DNA of 64,000 nt from Patescibacteria group bacterium (lineage in GTDB: Bacteria; Patescibacteriota; Patescibacteriia; JAXHNJ01), in the NCBI GenBank assembly GCA_034520665.1, contig JAXHNJ010000002.1, forward strand, positions 544,660-608,659, given 5' to 3'. Position 1 is the first letter of the stretch. Each line of letters opens with the position of its first letter. Under the pieces are notes generated by a model. The model saw nothing but the letters and a program-made list of their open reading frames with translations. It made no database searches and was not told where the DNA came from. This document shows positions 2,407-55,220 of this stretch, in pieces. The translations under genes were made by a program, and so were the position numbers.

Positions 2407-5400
2407 ATGGAAACTTTGTTTTTAAAAACGTCTAAAAGATCACAAAGAAAAAAAGAGGGCCTTAATAGTAAAGGTCTATTAAGGTTTTTAAATTGTATAC
2501 CAGTATATTTTATGGAATTTTTTTGTGGGTTAAGATATTTACCGCATTTTATAAAATCTAAACCCTATTCTGGTTATCAAAAATTAACCGAACAGGATGA
2601 AAATGGCACTTATAAAATTCCTTATACCACTTATTTAAAATACAAAAAATACTCTCTATTCACAACCACTGTATTATTGGTTTTACTGGGTTTATTTTCT
2701 GGTTTATTTATTTTTACGATTACGCCAAATAAAATAGAAGCTGCTGGTGGTGATCCTCTACCTGGAGAATGTGAAGCACCATATTCTACTCAGTTATCCG
2801 AACCTAGTTCAAATTTAAATATTTGTGTTGGTGATACTTTTTTTATGAATGGAAAATGGTATGATAGTGAACCCACAAATGATCCTTGCAGCGCTAAACA
2901 ATTTAGTGCTTATGTTGATAGTGATATAATTGATACAAACACTTCATTAAGCACTACCTCAACATTTAGTGAATTGGTAGAAGAAAATGATGCTTTTGGT
3001 AAAACTGTAACTGCTGAAACAAAAGGCTCATATTCCATTAAATTTGCCATGGCTGAAGATGATTCTCCTAGTAAAACAATTACTGTTAGCGACTCTCCCT
3101 CTTATTCCCAATCTCTCTCTCACTCGGACAATTCTACTTCTTCTATCACCTGGTCCTGGTCAGATGATGAAGATGAAGATAATTACCGCGTTATGGACAC
3201 TGGAGACGCTAACCAGTCCGGAGACCTGGCCGCCGATACTACCTCTTGGCAAGAAACCTCTTTGTCAGCCAACACTCAATACACCCGCTACCTGCAATTA
3301 GTTAATGGCTGTGGCACTACTAATACGGCCAATTTAAGTACCTACACTTCTATTGAATCACCATCCGGTATTTCTTTTGATACAGTAGAAAAAAACACCA
3401 TCACGGTTTCTGGTGCCGGTACGCTTTCAAATTTAGCTTCTGACTCTTCCGGCATAAAATTTTCTGAAATAGTAACCAGTAGTGATTCCGGTTGGAAGCA
3501 AACCAATTCCTGGGAAAAAACTGGTCTCAGTGCTAACACCGAATACACCTTTGAGGCCCAGACCAGAAATGGCGATGGTGATGAAAACTCAAGTATTGCC
3601 GGAGAAAGTAAATATACTTTAGCGGCCGAGGCTAATATCTCTAGTGATCTGACCGAAGAGGCCTGGACTAATTCAACTAGCTTTACTTTTACTAACGAGG
3701 CTGGCTTTGGCTCGGGTGGTTTAGAATACTACCGTTATGTTTTTGACCAAAACGATTCCCATTCTTTTAATGACACCGAAACCCAGTGGTCCTCTGGCAC
3801 CAAAGAAGAAACTGATCCTTCGGAAGGTAATTGGTACATGCATGTTAAAGCCTATAACGCTGAAGACACAGCGGCTGCTTCTGGAGCTACTCAAACTCTC
3901 GGTCCCTTTAAGGTAGATATTACTGACCCAGCCATTACTAATAATGTTACTGGCGACACAGCCTGGCTTAATGCAGCGGGCACGGCTTATGATGTGGACT
4001 TTATGTCTAATGGCGGCTCTAACTTAGATTATGCTCAATACGCTGTCGGTACTACTCAAGGCGGCAGTGATGTTTTAGGCTGGACTAATATTTTTACCGA
4101 AGACACGGCTTCTTACACCAACTCTTGGCCGGTGGACTTTGACAGTTTAGCTGAAGGCACTAATTACGTTTCTTTTAGGACCTATGATCAGGCGGGAAAT
4201 GTGAAAGAAGAACTATCAAATGGTTTTCAAGTCAGAAAAGACACTATTGTGCCAGTGCCTGATGTGGAGACACCAGTTACTACTTCATCAGCAGCCATTA
4301 TTAGCTGGACTACTTCCGAGCCGACCACTACTCAACTAAATTGGGGCGCGGATGAAAATACTACAAATTCTACCACTGAAAGTGAGGAAAAATCCACTGA
4401 ACACACTGTTACCTTAGATAGCTTAAGTGATAATACTGAATATTTCTTTAAAGTAGCCGGACAGGATAAGGCTTCTAACCAAACACTTCATACGGCTGAG
4501 AGTTTTACTACCGCTGAACTAGAAGCCACTGTCATCACCAATGTTCAAGTCTCTGAAATTTCTCAGACCTCAGTTAAAGTCACTTGGACTACCAATCATG
4601 AAGCTGACTCCAAAGTGCGTTATGGTACTACCACTGCTTATGGTGATGAGGTTTATGATTCTGAAGAAGTAACCAGCCATGAAATGATCGTCACTGGTTT
4701 AACCGCTGGCACCACTTATCATTATGAGGTTTTAAGTGTCGGCAATACTTCAACCAATGACGCTGACGCTACTTTTATGACTGAAGAAGCGGAAGAACCA
4801 GCCGAAGAAGATGAAACTGAACAAGAGGAAGTTACTGAAGAAGCGGAAGAACCAGCCGAAGAAGAAACTACTCAAACTTATGTGGCTTCTCCGACAGTAG
4901 TCAAAAACGAAACTAACCCCATAGAAGAAGGAGTCACCATTAACGAAGTCAAACCAACTATTACTGGCCTGGCTCGTTCTAACAACACTATTTTCATTTT
5001 TATTGACGGCGAACTGGAGAATACGGTTCTTTCGACGGACGATCTTTCAGGAACCGGATCCTTTGCTTATAAATTAAGAAGAGTTTTACCTGAAGGTGAA
5101 CACACTTTATATACTATTTCTCGCGATCAGAGTGGTAATTATTCTGATGCTTCACCAGTTATTACCTTTAATGTTGACCATCCCTTTGTGGCGCCCACTC
5201 TTTACACCCCAGTTTTTACAGATGGCTCTAACCCCACGGTTATTGTTAACGGCGTAGCCAGAAATGATTCCTTGATTAAACTCTACATAGACGATGAATA
5301 CCAGGATCAATTTAACGTGACCAATAATCCGGACCATGAAAATACTTATTTCAGCTACCAATATCCCATTAGTAGTTTAGCCAGTGGCTCTCATACCATT

Positions 5401-5682
5401 AAAGTCAAAGCCTTTAGTTCTTCTGGTGAAGCTTCTAAATATTCCAACGCCTACACTTTCCAAAAAAGCCAAGGCCAGGTAGTCAATGAAGACCAGTTTA
5501 TCTTTGACACCAGTCTTTCCTACAAAGTAATAGATGGTGATTCTTTATGGAAAATAGCCACAAGATTTTATGGGGACGGTTCCCAGTACTCAAAAATAGT
5601 AGAAGCTAACAAAGAAACTTATCCCAGCTTGATTAATAATCCTGGTGGTATTCAGCCGGGTTGGGTTTTGAGTATTCCTTAA
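2407..5682 (+). CDS. Large cell-surface protein with an N-terminal TM anchor, multiple fibronectin-III / Ig-like repeats, an acidic duplicated linker and a C-terminal LysM domain
   Basis: 1091-aa ORF. TM helix LFTTTVLLVLLGLFSGLFIF. Repeated FN3-type TxxS..W....EYxF.V..GxD segments. Duplicated TEEAEEPAEE linker. C-terminal YKVIDGDSLWKIATRFYGDGSQYSKIVEANK...GWVLSIP matches LysM. Confidence 0.85.
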   Translation: METLFLKTSKRSQRKKEGLNSKGLLRFLNCIPVYFMEFFCGLRYLPHFIKSKPYSGYQKLTEQDENGTYKIPYTTYLKYKKYSLFTTTVLLVLLGLFSGLFIFTITPNKIEAAGGDPLPGECEAPYSTQLSEPSSNLNICVGDTFFMNGKWYDSEPTNDPCSAKQFSAYVDSDIIDTNTSLSTTSTFSELVEENDAFGKTVTAETKGSYSIKFAMAEDDSPSKTITVSDSPSYSQSLSHSDNSTSSITWSWSDDEDEDNYRVMDTGDANQSGDLAADTTSWQETSLSANTQYTRYLQLVNGCGTTNTANLSTYTSIESPSGISFDTVEKNTITVSGAGTLSNLASDSSGIKFSEIVTSSDSGWKQTNSWEKTGLSANTEYTFEAQTRNGDGDENSSIAGESKYTLAAEANISSDLTEEAWTNSTSFTFTNEAGFGSGGLEYYRYVFDQNDSHSFNDTETQWSSGTKEETDPSEGNWYMHVKAYNAEDTAAASGATQTLGPFKVDITDPAITNNVTGDTAWLNAAGTAYDVDFMSNGGSNLDYAQYAVGTTQGGSDVLGWTNIFTEDTASYTNSWPVDFDSLAEGTNYVSFRTYDQAGNVKEELSNGFQVRKDTIVPVPDVETPVTTSSAAIISWTTSEPTTTQLNWGADENTTNSTTESEEKSTEHTVTLDSLSDNTEYFFKVAGQDKASNQTLHTAESFTTAELEATVITNVQVSEISQTSVKVTWTTNHEADSKVRYGTTTAYGDEVYDSEEVTSHEMIVTGLTAGTTYHYEVLSVGNTSTNDADATFMTEEAEEPAEEDETEQEEVTEEAEEPAEEETTQTYVASPTVVKNETNPIEEGVTINEVKPTITGLARSNNTIFIFIDGELENTVLSTDDLSGTGSFAYKLRRVLPEGEHTLYTISRDQSGNYSDASPVITFNVDHPFVAPTLYTPVFTDGSNPTVIVNGVARNDSLIKLYIDDEYQDQFNVTNNPDHENTYFSYQYPISSLASGSHTIKVKAFSSSGEASKYSNAYTFQKSQGQVVNEDQFIFDTSLSYKVIDGDSLWKIATRFYGDGSQYSKIVEANKETYPSLINNPGGIQPGWVLSIP

Positions 5683-26695: not shown

Positions 26696-28372
26696 TTAAT
26701 AAATTTCTTCTTTTTTTTCACGAATAAAATTCATCCATTGGTCTAAAACTTCTACCAAAGTTTTAAAAGGGGCTTCAATAATAAAGTCAAGTACAAAAGC
26801 AAAAATATTTATCTTTGGTGCTTTTAAAGAAAGCCAACGACCCATTCTAATAATGGGTATAGAAAAGAAATCAATTAAAGCGCCAATAACTGTTTTTTTC
26901 TTTTCCACTATAATAAGCTCGCGTGTGGTTTCTCGGCTTTTAATACCAAAGAAACTAACCAGAGAAAGAAAAAGTAGAAAGAGAAAAATACTAACCGCGT
27001 TAAAATTAAATAATCTTAAAATGTAAACAATTAAACCAAAAGAAATGCTAAAAACTATAAAATATAAAATGTTAAAAATTACATTCCATTTAGCGCGATA
27101 CTTGATTGGTTTTTTAAAATGCTCAAATTTAAATTCTTTTTCTCTTTCATAAACGAGACTGTTAATAGCTTTAATAACTTGGGCTGTATTTTTTTTGGTC
27201 GGTATTTTTATACTGGCAGCTATAAATATTAAAAGTATAGGGTGAAAAAATACATTGGTAATCAGGGCTGGATAATGAATTGTGTTATAAGCCAGCACAT
27301 CAAAAGGCAGCTCTAAAACAAAGGCTAGTACAGTTTTAGTTAAGATTATATAAATAACAGCCCTTAAAGTACTTCTTTTGAGTTTTTCTTTAGCCTTTTT
27401 ATAGCGAAAACGACAGGCTCTTTTTATATGTTGGTTTAATAGATCAGGTTTAGTTAATATTGAGCGGGCTTTTTCCTTATTGTGTTTTATAATATCTTTG
27501 AGAATAGTGAGAATAATAATATATTTTTTAACCTGACGAAAAATAGGCCCGGCTATGGGATTATCTATTTGTTTTTCAATAGCTTTTTTTAAACTTTTTA
27601 AATTATTGGCTACCTCATTTATTATATTATCATCATTTATAGTCCACTCTGGATAATAAAGTTGCAGTAGGCTATGGCGAATAATAGCGTCATCAGATTT
27701 CATTAAGGCTCGGTGTATAGCGATATAAAGTTGAGTATTTTTTACTTGTTCACTAACTTCTTCTTGGATATAAACCTTATCCTTCAAAACAGAATAAGCA
27801 AATTCAATTAAAGCCTGTTGCTTATGGGGTGGAAAAAAGGCCTGCTCAATTTCAACTGAAGCCATACTTAATATCCATTCATTAAACTCGAATCTTTTCT
27901 GGCCTTTTTCCAAAAAAGAGCTCTGTCGCATTAATTTTATATATTTAGCAAATATTTTTTCTACCCTTTCCACTAAACTTTCCGGGACAGTGTCATTTTT
28001 TAAATAACCAGCTCGAATTAATTCAACAATTAAACTTCTGATATTAAAAGTTTCAATCTTTCCTTGGTTAAGCCAGCGAGTTAAAATTCTCTCAATAGCG
28101 TTTTTTCTTAAAAGGTGCTCATCTTTATAATCAATAGCTATTCTAATTTTTTCATAGAGAAATGCCATCTTTGAAATAGTGGTGGAAACATGGATCTTAG
28201 GAGATTTAGGATCTTGCCATTCTTTATTTTTTTGAATTTCAAAAGCGCTAATCAATTTTTCTACAGCTGGTTTTAATTCCTTGCTTTGATTTATTTGATT
28301 ATTTTGATTATCATTTTTTTGTTGAAAACTTTGCTTGAAGTTATCAAATTTATTTTTTTCTGGTAAATACAT
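26696..28372 (-). CDS. Large hypothetical membrane protein with an N-terminal soluble region and a C-terminal multi-TM region
   Basis: 558-aa ORF. It is divergent from the GT39 gene. No family assigned. Confidence 0.65.
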   Translation of the reverse strand: MYLPEKNKFDNFKQSFQQKNDNQNNQINQSKELKPAVEKLISAFEIQKNKEWQDPKSPKIHVSTTISKMAFLYEKIRIAIDYKDEHLLRKNAIERILTRWLNQGKIETFNIRSLIVELIRAGYLKNDTVPESLVERVEKIFAKYIKLMRQSSFLEKGQKRFEFNEWILSMASVEIEQAFFPPHKQQALIEFAYSVLKDKVYIQEEVSEQVKNTQLYIAIHRALMKSDDAIIRHSLLQLYYPEWTINDDNIINEVANNLKSLKKAIEKQIDNPIAGPIFRQVKKYIIILTILKDIIKHNKEKARSILTKPDLLNQHIKRACRFRYKKAKEKLKRSTLRAVIYIILTKTVLAFVLELPFDVLAYNTIHYPALITNVFFHPILLIFIAASIKIPTKKNTAQVIKAINSLVYEREKEFKFEHFKKPIKYRAKWNVIFNILYFIVFSISFGLIVYILRLFNFNAVSIFLFLLFLSLVSFFGIKSRETTRELIIVEKKKTVIGALIDFFSIPIIRMGRWLSLKAPKINIFAFVLDFIIEAPFKTLVEVLDQWMNFIREKKEEIY

Positions 28373-28460
28373 AAATTATGAAAAATATACTTCTAGTTGG
28401 TCATTTAAACATAATATTTTAATTTTGGCAATACTTTTAAAAAAATTATATAATAAAAGC

Positions 28461-29678
28461 ATGAATAAAAAACAAACTTGGTTAGTAATATTTGTAATTA
28501 TTATTACCTTGCTCAGTCTTTTTTTGAGATTTTATAATTTAGGCTTTCCCGAAAAAATTACATCGGATGAACATTATTTTGTAAATTTTGGTCGCGCCTA
28601 TGTTAGTCAGGAATTTTATCATGATGTGCATCCACCTTTGGGCAAGTTTTTTATTGCTCTGGGCATAAAAATATTTGGCGATAATGCCTTAGGCTGGCGT
28701 TTTTTTACGGCCTTATTTGGCAGTCTTTTGGTACCCTTAGGTTATTTATTGGCCTGGAAAATGTTTAATAATAAATTTATAGCCGTTTCTTTTTCTCTGT
28801 TTATACTTTTTGACGGTCTGTTTTTTGTCCAGTCACGCTTAGCCCGGCTAGACACTATTTATTTATTTTTCTTATTTCTAGCTTTCTATTTTTTCTTTTC
28901 TTTTTTGAAAAGCCATAAAGACAAAGAAATTTATTTAATTTTGTCGGGTTTATTTTTGGGCTTTAGCATAAGTACCAAATGGGTGGCTTTGGCCGGCGGT
29001 TTGTCTTTTTTAATAATCTGGCTTATTAAAAAGAAAGAAATAAAAAAATCAATAATTTGGTTTTTATTTTACCTGGTTTTTATTCCTTTGGCTATTTATT
29101 TTTTAATTTGGCAGATTCATTACGGATTAATAAGTACCCAGCCTATTACTTTTTATGAAAATTTTAAGATATTAACTTATCACCAGGGAATTAAAGAAGT
29201 ACATTCTTTAGGTTCGCCTTTTTGGTCCTGGCCTTTAATGATTTATCCTTTCTCATATTTTATAGAAAAAAGCGAGCAAGTAATAAAATATATTACGGAT
29301 TTACCTAATCCATTAATCTGGTGGCCGGCTCTAGTCGGGTTTTTATATGGCTTTTTTAAATTTAGACTTAAAGACAAAAAATTTAATATTATTTTAATAA
29401 TTTTTGCCAGTCATTTTCTACCCTATCTTTTTATCTCTCGCTCGCTTTTTCTTTATCATTTTATTCTGGCGGCTCCTTTTTTATGGCTGGGATTTTTATA
29501 TTTTTTAAGTAAGTTTTGGTACCAATCAAAAAAAAGCAAAATTATTATTTTAGGTTATTTTGCTTTAGTTATTATTTCTTTTGTTTTTTTCTATCCGGTT
29601 TTAATCGGCCAGCCATTATCCACGAGCAGTTTTAATTTAAGATGGTGGCTAATTAGCTGGTTTCCTTTGGCGGTCTAA
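28461..29678 (+). CDS. GT39/PMT-family dolichyl-phosphate-mannose protein mannosyltransferase-like glycosyltransferase
   Basis: N-terminal DEHYF loop motif, HPPLGK and a multi-TM GT-C fold. The likely start is MNKKQ at 28461, inside the longer ORF that opens at 28335. Confidence 0.8.
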   Translation: MNKKQTWLVIFVIIITLLSLFLRFYNLGFPEKITSDEHYFVNFGRAYVSQEFYHDVHPPLGKFFIALGIKIFGDNALGWRFFTALFGSLLVPLGYLLAWKMFNNKFIAVSFSLFILFDGLFFVQSRLARLDTIYLFFLFLAFYFFFSFLKSHKDKEIYLILSGLFLGFSISTKWVALAGGLSFLIIWLIKKKEIKKSIIWFLFYLVFIPLAIYFLIWQIHYGLISTQPITFYENFKILTYHQGIKEVHSLGSPFWSWPLMIYPFSYFIEKSEQVIKYITDLPNPLIWWPALVGFLYGFFKFRLKDKKFNIILIIFASHFLPYLFISRSLFLYHFILAAPFLWLGFLYFLSKFWYQSKKSKIIILGYFALVIISFVFFYPVLIGQPLSTSSFNLRWWLISWFPLAV

Positions 29679-50792: not shown

Positions 50793-51734
50793 ATGAAGTC
50801 TAGAAAAAAAATAAACTTTTTTATTGTCGGAGTAGCCAAATCCGGTACTTCATCTATGCACAATTATCTGCAGCAGCATCCTAAAATATTTATGAGTCCG
50901 GTCAAAGAAACCTACTTTTTTAGTAAAGATTTAAGAATAGAAAATTTCAAGGGAAAAATTAAAAAAAATAAAAAAGTAAATAAGAAAAAATATTTTTCAA
51001 ATTCTCTGCTTCCTCAAGTTCAACAGATTTTCATAAAAAATATAGAAGATTACTATCAAATATTCAGAGAAGCTAAAAACGAAAAAATATTAGGAGAATC
51101 ATGCCCCGGCTATTTATACAGTCAGTTAGCGGCCAAAGAGATATATCAATACAACCCTAAAGCCAAAATAATGATAATGTTAAGAGACCCAGTAGAAAGA
51201 GCTTACTCAAATTTTATGATGCAATTGGAAAATGGACTTTTAAAAACAGACTATTTTTTAGAAGAAGTAAAAAAAGATTATAACCAGAATGATAAAGGCT
51301 GGGGTAGAAGTCATTTGTTTATTGAATCCGGTTTATATTATAAACCAGTAAAAAGATACTTAGATCTATTTCCTCAAAACAATGTAAAAATAATTTTATT
51401 TAATGATTTTATAAAAAAAACTAATTTAGTTCTAAGTCAAGTTTGTGATTTTCTAGATATTGAAAAATTTAATTTTATGACAAAGAAGGCTCATATGAAG
51501 TCTCAAAAACCAAAATTTCTCTTTCTTTATAATCAAGTGATAAATCTGGCGCAATCGGCTAATTTACTAAAAATAGTACCTGAAAGTTTAAGAGAAAGAA
51601 TTAAAAAAATGTTTATGAAAGAAAAGCCTAAGTTAACTGAGGAAGAAAGAAAAACACTTCGGCCCTATTTTAAAGAAGATATTTTAAAACTACAAAACTT
51701 AATAGGAAAAGATTTGTCAGACTGGCTCAAATAA
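50793..51734 (+). CDS. Sulfotransferase-family protein
   Basis: 5'-PSB-like motif VGVAKSGTSS and 3'-PB region (RDPVERAYS). Confidence 0.75.
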   Translation: MKSRKKINFFIVGVAKSGTSSMHNYLQQHPKIFMSPVKETYFFSKDLRIENFKGKIKKNKKVNKKKYFSNSLLPQVQQIFIKNIEDYYQIFREAKNEKILGESCPGYLYSQLAAKEIYQYNPKAKIMIMLRDPVERAYSNFMMQLENGLLKTDYFLEEVKKDYNQNDKGWGRSHLFIESGLYYKPVKRYLDLFPQNNVKIILFNDFIKKTNLVLSQVCDFLDIEKFNFMTKKAHMKSQKPKFLFLYNQVINLAQSANLLKIVPESLRERIKKMFMKEKPKLTEEERKTLRPYFKEDILKLQNLIGKDLSDWLK

Positions 51735-51915: not shown

Positions 51916-52106
51916 TTACCTATTTTATTTGACTTTTTAGCTAATTTATGCTATTATTAGACTAGCAAAACAAAAACAAAAAGACAATTAAATAAAAAAA
52001 ATATTTTTAAGTCAATATTAATGATTAATAATAATATCTTCTATTAACTTAAATAGCCGCTTTTTTAAACTGCGGTTTTTTTATTAACTAAACTAAAAAT
52101 AAATTT

Positions 52107-54824
52107 ATGCCAAAATTTAATACGGAAACAGAAGTAAAAACATCAACTCCTGTTTCCCACAAAATCGCTGTTGGTATCATGATGATTGGAGCTTTATCCG
52201 CCGCTATGGGTATTGTTATGGGTTTGCCAGTTTTTAAAGAAAAGAAAGTGATTGGCGCCCAGGCCTTTAAACCACTTCAATTGACTGACGGAGTACCCAG
52301 CACCAATGAAATTAAGGATTCACGCTACGCCCAGTATCAGTTTTTGCGTGATAGTGTGGTTATGGCAACTTATAATTATTCTAATGACTCGGCTTTTCAA
52401 GAAAACAAAAATTTTAAAATTGGTGACAAAGATTCTCTTAATTCTTTTTTTATCAAAGAAGCATCAGCACAAACTACTTTTTCCATAGAAGATATTACTA
52501 ATGGTTCATTTGAACCAGGAGATACTATTGACTCAAATAGCAAATCACCTTTGCAAGTTAAGATTACCCAGAGCGAAATTGACTCGGCTGAAATTCCCGC
52601 TATTACTTTTAGTTTAGTCACTGATATTGGTAATAAAACCCTTTGTTTACCCAGTAATACTATTAATCAAGGATCCGTAGTCAGTTATTATTTTGATGTG
52701 GACGGTACTCCTTATCTAGACAGTAATCTGAAAAATAAAGCCATGAATAGCACTTGCCAGGTAAATTCTATAGCTTATGATCCAACCACAATTAGTGAAA
52801 TAAATTTTAATGAACCCTACCCAGAAAGCATTGCTGATAGTTTTGCTATTTATTTTATCCGCTACGATCAAAGTATGTTTGCCATGGCTGATAATACTTT
52901 TGTTAAAATGACACCTGATGATGAAATAGATTTTGTGGATGGTGGTAAAGCCCCTTTTACCTTAGGTCCTGGTTACTATGGAGCGCCAGAAGAAATTACC
53001 GTACCAGCCCGAATTTATACAGTTGATTCTAATTTAGGAACACAGACACTTTGTCTTCCAGAACAGACTATTACCGGCGAATGGAATGAGAATGATCAGA
53101 AATATTTAGGCAAAGGTACTCCTTACTACTACGACCAAAACGGCACGCCTTACACAGACGTACTTTTAACTAACATGGCTACTACCAAGCCTTGTCATGA
53201 ATTATTAAAAGATAGTTTAACCCCTTACTATATTAGTGAGGCTTCTCTTAGTGATACTATAGATGAATATAGTAATATTAAATTTAAAAGAGATAACACT
53301 GAATTAGGAGTACTTTACATTAACAATAATCAATATTCTCGTAATTTTGATGATTCTCTAAATCCAGAAAGTAAATCACCTCTCTTACTGGCGATGGAAA
53401 CCGCTAACTTGAGTGAAGACGTTACTTTTCCAGCCAGAACTATTACTTTAAAGAACGCTAATTACGATGAGACTGAATACACTAACACTCTTTGCTTTCC
53501 GGAAACCACTACCTCTAACGGAGAGACCATTAAGTACTACTACGACCAAAACGGCACGCCTTACACAGACGTACTTTTAACTAACATGGCTACCACTAAG
53601 CCTTGTCATGAATTATTAAAAGATAGTTTAACCCCTTACTATATTAGTGAGGCTTCTCTTAGTGATACTATAGATGAATATAGTAATATTAAATTTAAAA
53701 GAGATAACACTGAATTAGGAGTACTTTACATTAACAATAATCAATATTCTCGTAATTTTGATGATTCTCTAAATCCAGAAAGTAAATCACCTCTCTTACT
53801 GGCGATGGAAACCGCTAACTTGAGTGAAGACGTTACTTTTCCAGCCAGAACTATTACTTTAAAGAACGCTAATTACGATGAGACTGAATACACTAACACT
53901 CTTTGCTTTCCGGAAACCACTACCTCTAACGGAGAGACCATTAAGTACTACTACGACCAAAACGGCACGCCTTACACAGACGTACTTTTAACTAACATGG
54001 CTACTACCAAGCCTTGTCATGAATTACTGGCTAATGTTTTTAAACCTGAAGGAATTAATGAGGCCAGATTGGATGAAATTGTTTCTACGCCGACTAAAAT
54101 TAAGTTTATCAGAGAAAATACGGTATTAAATTATTTATGGTCACACCAAGATCCCAGTTTCCAAGATCCCGATTTTGAAGATTTAGAAACAGTATCCGGA
54201 GGTAGTTCTCCGCTTATGTTAAAACTTTCTTCTTTATTAGCTCAAACTTTTCCTGAGAGATTAGTTCAAATTAAAGCCCTTGAAAATAATAAAGAATATA
54301 CAAAAACGCTATGCATACCAGAAACAGAAATCACGGAAAATGGTACAAAAGAATATTTCTATGATAATAATGGAAGCCTCTATGCTTATACTGACGCCCT
54401 ACTAACCAATCGGATCATTTGTGATACCTGTATACATAATCCACCGGAAGTAAGCATTTCCCCTTTAACGAAATCGGGTTACGCTGGAGATAGTTTCAGT
54501 TACAGTATTAGTGTAACCAATCCAAATAATCCAGAAATTTGCCCCCGTTCAGAAATATATACTTTTTATTTGCAAGAGCCGGCTGGTTGGGAAGCTAATT
54601 ATGATTTAGACACTTTATATGATCCACCGGCTTTGAGAGTTGAACCGGGAGAAACAAAAGAAATATCAATGACTTTAATTAGTCCTGACAATATTTCATC
54701 TGGAGATTATGAAGTTCGTGTAAACTTAACCAACTGGGTTGCTATTAGTGGATCTGGTTATGCTGAGGTTACTATTTCGCCGACTCCAAAGAATTCTGAT
54801 GACAAGGAAATTATGGTAGAATGA
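52107..54824 (+). CDS. Large repeat-containing surface protein with an N-terminal TM, YYxDxNGTPY...C modules and a C-terminal CARDB-like domain
   Basis: 905 aa. Four modules carrying YY(F/Y)D(V/Q)(D/N)GTPY...TKPCHELL, two of them identical. The C-terminal tail is an Ig-like beta-sandwich type. Confidence 0.85.
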   Translation: MPKFNTETEVKTSTPVSHKIAVGIMMIGALSAAMGIVMGLPVFKEKKVIGAQAFKPLQLTDGVPSTNEIKDSRYAQYQFLRDSVVMATYNYSNDSAFQENKNFKIGDKDSLNSFFIKEASAQTTFSIEDITNGSFEPGDTIDSNSKSPLQVKITQSEIDSAEIPAITFSLVTDIGNKTLCLPSNTINQGSVVSYYFDVDGTPYLDSNLKNKAMNSTCQVNSIAYDPTTISEINFNEPYPESIADSFAIYFIRYDQSMFAMADNTFVKMTPDDEIDFVDGGKAPFTLGPGYYGAPEEITVPARIYTVDSNLGTQTLCLPEQTITGEWNENDQKYLGKGTPYYYDQNGTPYTDVLLTNMATTKPCHELLKDSLTPYYISEASLSDTIDEYSNIKFKRDNTELGVLYINNNQYSRNFDDSLNPESKSPLLLAMETANLSEDVTFPARTITLKNANYDETEYTNTLCFPETTTSNGETIKYYYDQNGTPYTDVLLTNMATTKPCHELLKDSLTPYYISEASLSDTIDEYSNIKFKRDNTELGVLYINNNQYSRNFDDSLNPESKSPLLLAMETANLSEDVTFPARTITLKNANYDETEYTNTLCFPETTTSNGETIKYYYDQNGTPYTDVLLTNMATTKPCHELLANVFKPEGINEARLDEIVSTPTKIKFIRENTVLNYLWSHQDPSFQDPDFEDLETVSGGSSPLMLKLSSLLAQTFPERLVQIKALENNKEYTKTLCIPETEITENGTKEYFYDNNGSLYAYTDALLTNRIICDTCIHNPPEVSISPLTKSGYAGDSFSYSISVTNPNNPEICPRSEIYTFYLQEPAGWEANYDLDTLYDPPALRVEPGETKEISMTLISPDNISSGDYEVRVNLTNWVAISGSGYAEVTISPTPKNSDDKEIMVE
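53124..53945 (+). repeat. Nucleotide-identical in-frame tandem duplication, 2 x 411 bp, plus a 75-bp partial third copy
   Basis: The TACTACTACGACCAAAACGGCACGCC... unit starts at 53124, 53535 and 53946. The 137-aa module is repeated exactly. Confidence 0.85.
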
Positions 54825-55220
54825 TAAAATTAATTTCACCCTTGACAAAAATAAATTAATAAGCTAGACTGGGGCTATTAATTAGTAAGTATCCCAATAA
54901 TTGATTTGAAAAAAATTTAACTTTAGCGGGGTACATAAGAAAGTTCATCAAATTATGAACGATCAACAAGGCTTTGGGCAAAGACAAATGCACCAGGGCA
55001 AATGGACCTGCTCAGAATGCGGAACCGAGATTACCGAGCTTCCTTTTGAGCCGGATGGTCAACGCCCGATTTATTGTCGGCAATGCCATCAGAAACGTCG
55101 CCAAAATAGAGGCGGCGGACGCGGACAGTTTTAAGAAAGTGATTTTTTAAACGTCAAATATAAGTCCAAAAGTAAAAAACTCCTTTAGTAATTTAAGGGA
55201 GTTTTTTTGTATTAAAATTA

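Follow-up and report, generated by a model that had tools for sequence, protein, structure and literature searches.

A recently duplicated in-frame module in a putative surface protein of a Patescibacteria group bacterium

The question raised by this locus is how a single gene came to hold adjacent, almost identical copies of a 411-nucleotide (nt) segment, and what kind of protein the copies encode. The gene lies on a contig (JAXHNJ010000002.1) of a metagenome-assembled genome (MAG) of a Patescibacteria group bacterium, in a stretch of 64,000 nt that was analysed as a whole (the window). It consists of one open reading frame (ORF) of 905 amino acids (aa) on the plus strand. We found that the duplication in this ORF is a real, recent, near-perfect and in-frame duplication of a protein module. 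Below we describe the repeat and the encoded protein, then the family to which the modules belong, and then weigh how the duplication may have arisen.

Anatomy of the repeat and of the encoded protein

Tandem Repeats Finder placed 2.2 copies of a 411-nt period at 53124-54026 (99% matches, zero indels), wholly within the single ORF (Table 1). In a base-by-base comparison, copy 1 (53124-53534) and copy 2 (53535-53945) were identical at 409 of 411 positions, a tandem match that is not attributable to chance. Both mismatches are synonymous changes in Thr codons, 3 nt apart (T53183 and C53186 in copy 1 vs C53594 and T53597 in copy 2), the codons reading ACT ACC in copy 1 and ACC ACT in copy 2. Copy 3 is only 81 nt long (53946-54026) and identical to copy 1, and beyond it the nucleotide identity is ~50%. 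The repeat can be written as R1(81)-U(330)-R2(81)-U'(330)-R3(81), in which U equals U' at 330 of 330 positions and R1 equals R3 at 81 of 81. The 5' flank of R1 is unrelated to the 5' flanks of R2 and R3, and identity is sharply lost after R3. As 411 nt are 3 x 137, the duplication is in-frame and yields one whole module. The window contains no second long-period repeat.

An earlier note, made from the letters of this DNA, had described a nucleotide-perfect 411-bp duplication in 2.2 copies. Its period, coordinates and copy number were reproduced, as were the copy starts at 53124, 53535 and 53946, while the perfection was not, since two positions differ and the third copy ends after 81 nt. The very recent date that it proposed agrees with the full identity of the unique 330-nt part of the unit. 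Its diverged earlier module was also recovered, through the motif YYFDVDGTPY at aa 194 (~nt 52686); a fifth module, with the motif YFYDNNGSLY at aa 750 (~nt 54354), was absent from the note.

The R segment codes for YYYDQNGTPYTDVLLTNMATTKPCHEL(L) and thereby encodes YYYDQNGTPYTDVLLTNMATTKPCHELL, the most conserved motif of the module family and the best-kept part in every homologue. In an alignment of 13 modules from 5 proteins, the invariant residues were P10, R32, C100, P102, D117, G120, Y123, D125, L128 and C137, and R holds those from D117 to C137. The codons of the R motif mostly end in C (TAC, GAC, AAC, GGC), the guanine-plus-cytosine content at third codon positions (GC3) being ~0.5 locally (53124-53204 and the equivalent segments) vs 0.28 for the gene. 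The overall GC content of the gene is 0.36, which like its GC3 matches the genome (window GC, 33.8%). A horizontal origin of the repeat was considered and rejected, because GC and GC3 of the gene are native, the local enrichment in C-ending codons being limited to the motif. The minus strand of R also matches a terminator-like pattern three times (53143-53163, 53554-53574 and 53965-53985); these matches most likely arise from the repeat itself and are not a signal.

Table 1 Features of the repeat-bearing gene. Positions refer to the window; the hidden Markov model (HMM) scan that gave the stretches of module 1 starts its coordinates 5 residues upstream of the Met.
Feature	Positions	Strand	Remarks
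Promoter-like site	51929..51957	+	TTGACT-17 nt-TATTAT, extended -10 TG; ~150 nt before the start codon; consensus scan
Coding sequence, 905-aa modular protein	52107..54824	+	100% match to P0001, the hypothetical protein U5L76_05380 of an NCBI MAG (Patescibacteria group bacterium)
N-terminal hydrophobic segment, ~aa 19-42	52161..52232	+	KIAVGIMMIGALSAAMGIVMGLPV; read as uncleaved membrane anchor
Module 1, ~aa 50-217	52254..52757	+	Cys pair C180/C217; split by an insertion; HMM stretches aa 50-113 and 132-217
Module 2, aa 218-363	52758..53195	+	C316/C363; last 72 nt are the start of R1
R1, first 81-nt motif copy	53124..53204	+	
Module 3, aa 364-500	53196..53606	+	C463/C500
U, unique 330-nt part of the unit, first copy	53205..53534	+	Compared with 53616-53945
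R2, middle motif copy	53535..53615	+	Holds the sole two differences
Module 4, aa 501-637	53607..54017	+	C600/C637; protein 100% identical to module 3
U', second 330-nt copy	53616..53945	+	
R3, third motif copy	53946..54026	+	Compared with R1
Module 5, aa 638-772	54018..54422	+	C736/C772; 39% identical to module 3
C-terminal domain, aa 773-905	54423..54821	+	NEW3/NPCBM_assoc-like Ig-like beta-sandwich; furthest from the anchor

The protein is made of five homologous modules of ~135 aa each, which end at aa 217, 363, 500, 637 and 772 and carry two invariant Cys apiece. In their HMM envelopes, modules 2-5 follow one another directly, with no linker in between. Module 2 corresponds to module 2 of the relatives P0002 and P0003, with which it shares a GEWNENDQKYLGKG-type insertion. 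The AlphaFold2 model of module 3 is confident and all-beta (predicted local distance difference test score, pLDDT, 89.8; predicted template modelling score, pTM, 0.85). Paired cysteines of each module would form disulfides. The start codon at 52107 is supported because the N-terminus is conserved with homologues. The identical NCBI MAG protein sits on a 698-kb contig. Promoter-like sites in the region were no more numerous than in shuffled sequences, and the one in Table 1 is a pattern match only.

The hydrophobic segment near the N-terminus spans ~22 residues after a short polar stretch, and its best 20-aa window, from aa 21, is 95% hydrophobic. The 905-aa protein has no lipobox Cys and no LPXTG or C-terminal sorting signal. 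We infer from these sequence features that the protein is membrane-anchored, its N-terminus lying inside and its modules facing outward; the predicted surface location rests on the N-terminal anchor that most family members have, on the two invariant Cys per module and on the Ig-like C-terminal domain. This domain (133 aa) matched Pfam PF10633 with 26.4 bits alone (cut-off, 24.4) and 21.8 bits within the full protein, over profile positions 26-76 of 78. Its single-sequence AlphaFold2 model is weak (pLDDT 61) and all-beta, its Foldseek matches are generic Ig-like sandwiches (E ~1e-3), and a word-indexed search gave zero homologues of it.

A module family with recurrent near-identical neighbours

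The module has no Pfam family, even at E up to 1, no NCBIfam match and no sequence or profile match in the PDB; nor is it matched by the stalk-repeat families Rib, SHIRT, G5, MBG_2, Big_13, CshA_repeat and others in Pfam. A Foldseek comparison of the module model with the PDB gave no match either, the best hit having E 0.11 and template modelling (TM) scores reaching 0.38 at most. The motif YYYDxNGTPY superficially resembles the motifs of YD/RHS and choline- or cell-wall-binding repeats (YxYDxxG / YYFDxxG type), a likeness that served as a lead only. An RHS/YD or CW_binding_1 identity was rejected, since there was no Pfam match at the above threshold and the motif occurs once per 135-aa module, without short tandem hairpins.

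A word-indexed search with the window protein retrieved four relatives only. Searched against 1.84 billion representative proteins, the module profile retrieved 109 with E up to 1e-3, and 95 of these had E up to 1e-10. A typical member is 300-650 aa long and carries its anchor at the N-terminus, followed by 2-4 modules and then a short tail. Module-bearing ORFs were also located in 23 loci by a degenerate motif scan of species-representative genomes with HMM confirmation; 20 of these loci are labelled Patescibacteria, Parcubacteria or Komeilibacteria, two "uncultured bacterium", and the last is a 7-kb contig binned as Bdellovibrionales. The module is thus an undescribed domain family, almost confined to Patescibacteria. 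The window contains no second member. At two Patescibacteria MAG loci (L033 and L047), two family members stand side by side, indicating gene-level tandem paralogy besides module-level duplication.

Adjacent modules in the family are usually well diverged, with a median identity of 32.5% (72 pairs in 44 proteins). Five proteins have adjacent pairs at least 80% identical: the window protein (100%), L063 (100%), P0004 (92%), P0057 (88%) and L062 (84%). At the DNA level, L063 has a period of 408 nt in ~2.3 copies, with ~540 nt of near-perfect identity starting from its YYYD motif; it belongs to a different lineage (GC 0.33), and BLAST gave no match between it and the window protein that reached 55% identity. 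P0004 has a period of 396 nt in 2.2 copies with 88% matches, starting at the same motif, and its identity peaks in the core and is lower at the flanks; separate assemblies from JGI and ENA, as well as an NCBI MAG, encode exactly the P0004 protein. L062 has a period of 429 nt and a perfect tract of ~250 nt (218 + 30 nt) that is confined to the N-terminal half of each of two modules; in their C-terminal halves the two modules differ. The repeat therefore begins at the same motif in two of the three other members examined at the DNA level. In P0002, the closest relative, 72% identity extends to ~aa 371, just past R, and is followed by an unrelated region of 450 aa.

Because four other members have adjacent modules 84-100% identical, two of the three compared as DNA starting at the motif, module duplication or homogenisation is recurrent. 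These comparisons indicate that modules of the family are duplicated, homogenised or exchanged repeatedly, often with the conserved motif at the border. Two further statements of the earlier note can be judged at this level. Long-term modular evolution is borne out by the five homologous Cys-pair modules and by members with 1-6 modules and differing C-terminal ends. A recombination-prone nature is upheld for the family, in which 5 of the 44 multi-module members have highly similar adjacent modules and near-perfect DNA tracts occur in separate genomes.

Origin of the duplication

We consider it probable that this is an anchored, outward-facing protein with five beta-sandwich modules and a NEW3-type end, whose modules 3 and 4 arose by a recent in-frame tandem duplication through R-R recombination. 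The most likely cause would be unequal homologous recombination (or replication slippage) between two 81-nt R copies, which would have converted an ancestor A-R-U-R-B into A-R-U-R-U-R-B. R stands at the module end and module junction, where the most conserved motif of the family is encoded. Since removal of one period leaves A-R-U-R-B, the present layout is the product expected of one unequal crossover or slippage, and it is this layout from which a recombination mechanism at R is suggested. The same process could add or remove whole 137-aa modules with the frame kept, and the expected outcome would be variation in the length and surface of the extracellular part, with no on/off switching.

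Several points weigh against this reading. A crossover predicts R1 = R2 = R3, whereas R2 has two changes 3 nt apart and the other ~900 repeat positions are unchanged; the R2 changes call for something more, be it a further event, a patch of conversion or noise in the consensus. The ancestor also needed a nucleotide-identical R at the ends of two modules that are ~40% identical in protein, which requires earlier conversion or recombination. Together, the R2 swaps and the pre-duplication identity of R hint at earlier conversion events or at noise in the MAG consensus. There are only two full copies in the window protein, and no strain with another copy number was found: the 90% cluster is single-member, the contig index does not contain the exact protein, and two metagenome scans added no close variant. 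Searches for strain variants, made through related loci and a motif scan of metagenome contigs, gave only two relatives that were already known, and any variability of the locus itself would be extrapolated from the family. Most family members are without the distal domain, having tails of 10-30 aa, and the gene neighbourhood is not conserved among homologues. As for function, a part in adhesion or host contact would be hypothetical.

Gene conversion would explain the identity differently: modules 3 and 4 would be old neighbours, one of which was lately overwritten by the other through conversion within the gene, in the manner of concerted evolution, with the number of modules unchanged. The tract in L062, limited to N-terminal halves at a lag of 429, is a conversion-type patch, the core-peaked identity of P0004 points the same way, and older divergence could have left the isolated 2-nt difference in R2. 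In the window, however, the identical tract is one period and the 81-nt motif long, no more and no less, and at both ends it breaks off sharply at a motif border, which a crossover predicts and conversion would reach only by coincidence. Moreover, the closest relatives available (P0002, P0003 and L079) show no sign of a pre-existing module at that position. We therefore regard conversion as an unlikely source of the pair. A metagenome assembler could also have misresolved a loop, the true number of copies being 1.2 (over-expansion) or above 2.2 (collapse). The source is a MAG, the 411-nt unit exceeds typical short-read k-mers, and assemblies of relatives break here: the 1935-nt contig of L079 ends 18 nt from its module-2 YYYD motif, and P0052, a fragment of the L063 protein, begins within the duplicated modules of L063. 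These two cases suggest that the module repeat commonly breaks short-read assemblies. Yet R2 carries private variants and has U on both sides, and by our reasoning the ~100-nt U-R2-U junction fits single short reads and requires U at least twice. The product is also a clean in-frame duplication of a whole module, and like repeats stand in the same register in other genomes; one of these repeats, with 88-92% identity and its protein in separate assemblies, cannot stem from a loop made by an assembler. That the duplication is nothing but an artefact is thus unlikely, and we give an assembly origin only a small chance; the exact copy number keeps an assembly caveat, and a larger, collapsed array is conceivable.

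The earlier note had further taken the locus as likely to vary in phase or copy number; phase variation was not supported, since gain or loss of a 411-nt (3 x 137) unit alters the length of the protein without switching the gene off. A contingency locus that is turned on and off, or the template and variable repeat of a diversity-generating retroelement, is favoured by nothing but the fact that repeats and variable surface genes are generally associated. With a unit length divisible by 3, any gain or loss of copies keeps the frame, and phase variation of the on/off type is not to be expected; homopolymer and short-unit tracts are absent from the gene and its promoter region. The differences between copies are T/C exchanges and not adenine-specific, and the repeats are tandem coding modules, unlike a retroelement pair. 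Both possibilities appear extremely remote. Recombination between R copies thus stays our preferred account of modules 3 and 4.

Surroundings, significance and comparison with known systems

The homologues P0003 and P0005 lie between parA-parB-TPR and topA-dprA-mfd, and P0004 and the window gene lie elsewhere. Because the homologue loci differ, the idea of a conserved neighbourhood was dropped, and nothing about function can be read from the context. Immediately before the repeat gene stands a sulfotransferase gene (Sulfotransfer_3 / Sulfotransfer_1; 50793-51734, plus strand; GC 0.27), whose product has no signal sequence. A link to sulfation of Tyr or glycans, considered on account of the Tyr/Asp-rich motif and this neighbour, was rejected, as none of the homologue loci has a nearby sulfotransferase. 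Downstream, a 59-aa ORF (MNDQQGFGQRQMHQGKWTCSECGTEITELPFEPDGQRPIYCRQCHQKRRQNRGGGRGQF; 54956-55135, plus strand) matched Pfam zf_Tbcl_2 with 52.9 bits and is a probable treble-clef zinc finger, GC-richer than its surroundings, and a hairpin (~55178-55208) with a T-run lies between this ORF and a convergent MFS gene. Elsewhere in the window are a second large envelope-type protein (2407-5682, plus strand; 1091 aa), with an fn3 domain, a C-terminal LysM domain and weak matches to Big_13/Big_6-like Ig domains, and a PMT-family protein O-mannosyltransferase (28335-29678, plus strand). This enzyme could conceivably O-mannosylate extracellular proteins rich in Ser/Thr, perhaps with the repeat protein among them.

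A single two-copy duplication is an ordinary event, and a common route by which bacterial surface proteins change in length. The locus is thus a known kind of phenomenon, and what is new is the undescribed domain family with its recurrent motif-bordered duplications. Cultivated Patescibacteria are attached to other microbes, and their recognition and binding of hosts are largely obscure, with type IV pili as the main lead so far (PMC12206443). Because cultivated Patescibacteria live attached and the mechanisms of binding are little known, a role in host contact is plausible, and the protein would be an extracellular protein of variable length, possibly used for contact with host cells. An anchored, Patescibacteria-biased family with recurrent domain duplication or homogenisation is a fair candidate for a rapidly evolving molecule that serves contact or shielding. 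A bolder and rather doubtful proposal is that the Cys-pair module forms an undescribed extracellular family, possibly of a new beta-sandwich topology and essentially Patescibacteria-only, in which the stretch coding for YYYDxNGTPYTDxLLT...C acts as a built-in recombination site for rapid duplication, loss and swap of modules. If so, host-dependent ultrasmall bacteria would possess a contact protein of variable length and variable surface, and the stretch would be a sequence marker for candidate host-interaction genes. The repeat also flags where short-read MAG assemblies of Patescibacteria may break or miscount.

The C-terminal 133 aa resemble NEW3/NPCBM-associated domains (PF10633) and related Ig-like domains of glycosidases and of archaeal or bacterial envelope proteins in being modelled as an all-beta sandwich, the match being borderline; this domain lies outside the duplicated part. 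Fibrillar adhesins (Monzon et al. 2021, PMC8286594) combine a stalk of repeated domains with an adhesive domain. The window protein is similar in its anchor, its tandem beta-rich, stalk-like modules and its terminal domain of another type. It differs in being without a known adhesive domain, the NEW3-like end having no established binding function, and most members of the module family end right after the last module.

Periscope proteins (Rib/alpha C, SasG/Aap, Sgo_0707 SHIRT, CdrA) have long, near-identical DNA repeats that encode tandem folded domains, and vary in length (Whelan et al. 2021, PMC8201768); the proposal for the class is that such high identity of the DNA promotes recombination within the gene, by which repeats are gained or lost (PMC8201768). 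The defining trait of the class is a repeat number that varies between strains; in the present family, the number of modules ranges from 1 to 6 between species. The window protein has two identical units and no array, its module falls outside the Pfam families of the class (Rib, SHIRT, G5, MBG_2, Big_13 and others), and its host is a Patescibacteria MAG. Its anchor is an N-terminal transmembrane segment and its distal domain C-terminal, the reverse of the LPXTG-anchored Gram-positive examples. The likeness lies in long repeats (>50 aa) of highly identical DNA, each coding for a complete folded domain with hardly any linker, within a protein that is predicted to be at the surface. In length and identity of the repeats, the window protein has two 137-aa units with 100% protein and 409/411 DNA identity, these two being its only full units, and its adjacent-domain identity of 100% breaks the usual rule of <50%, from which the family median does not depart. 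A rod would be predicted from the confident module model, the abutting envelopes and the NEW3-like distal domain. Of the known concepts, Periscope-type variable-length surface proteins come closest to this protein.

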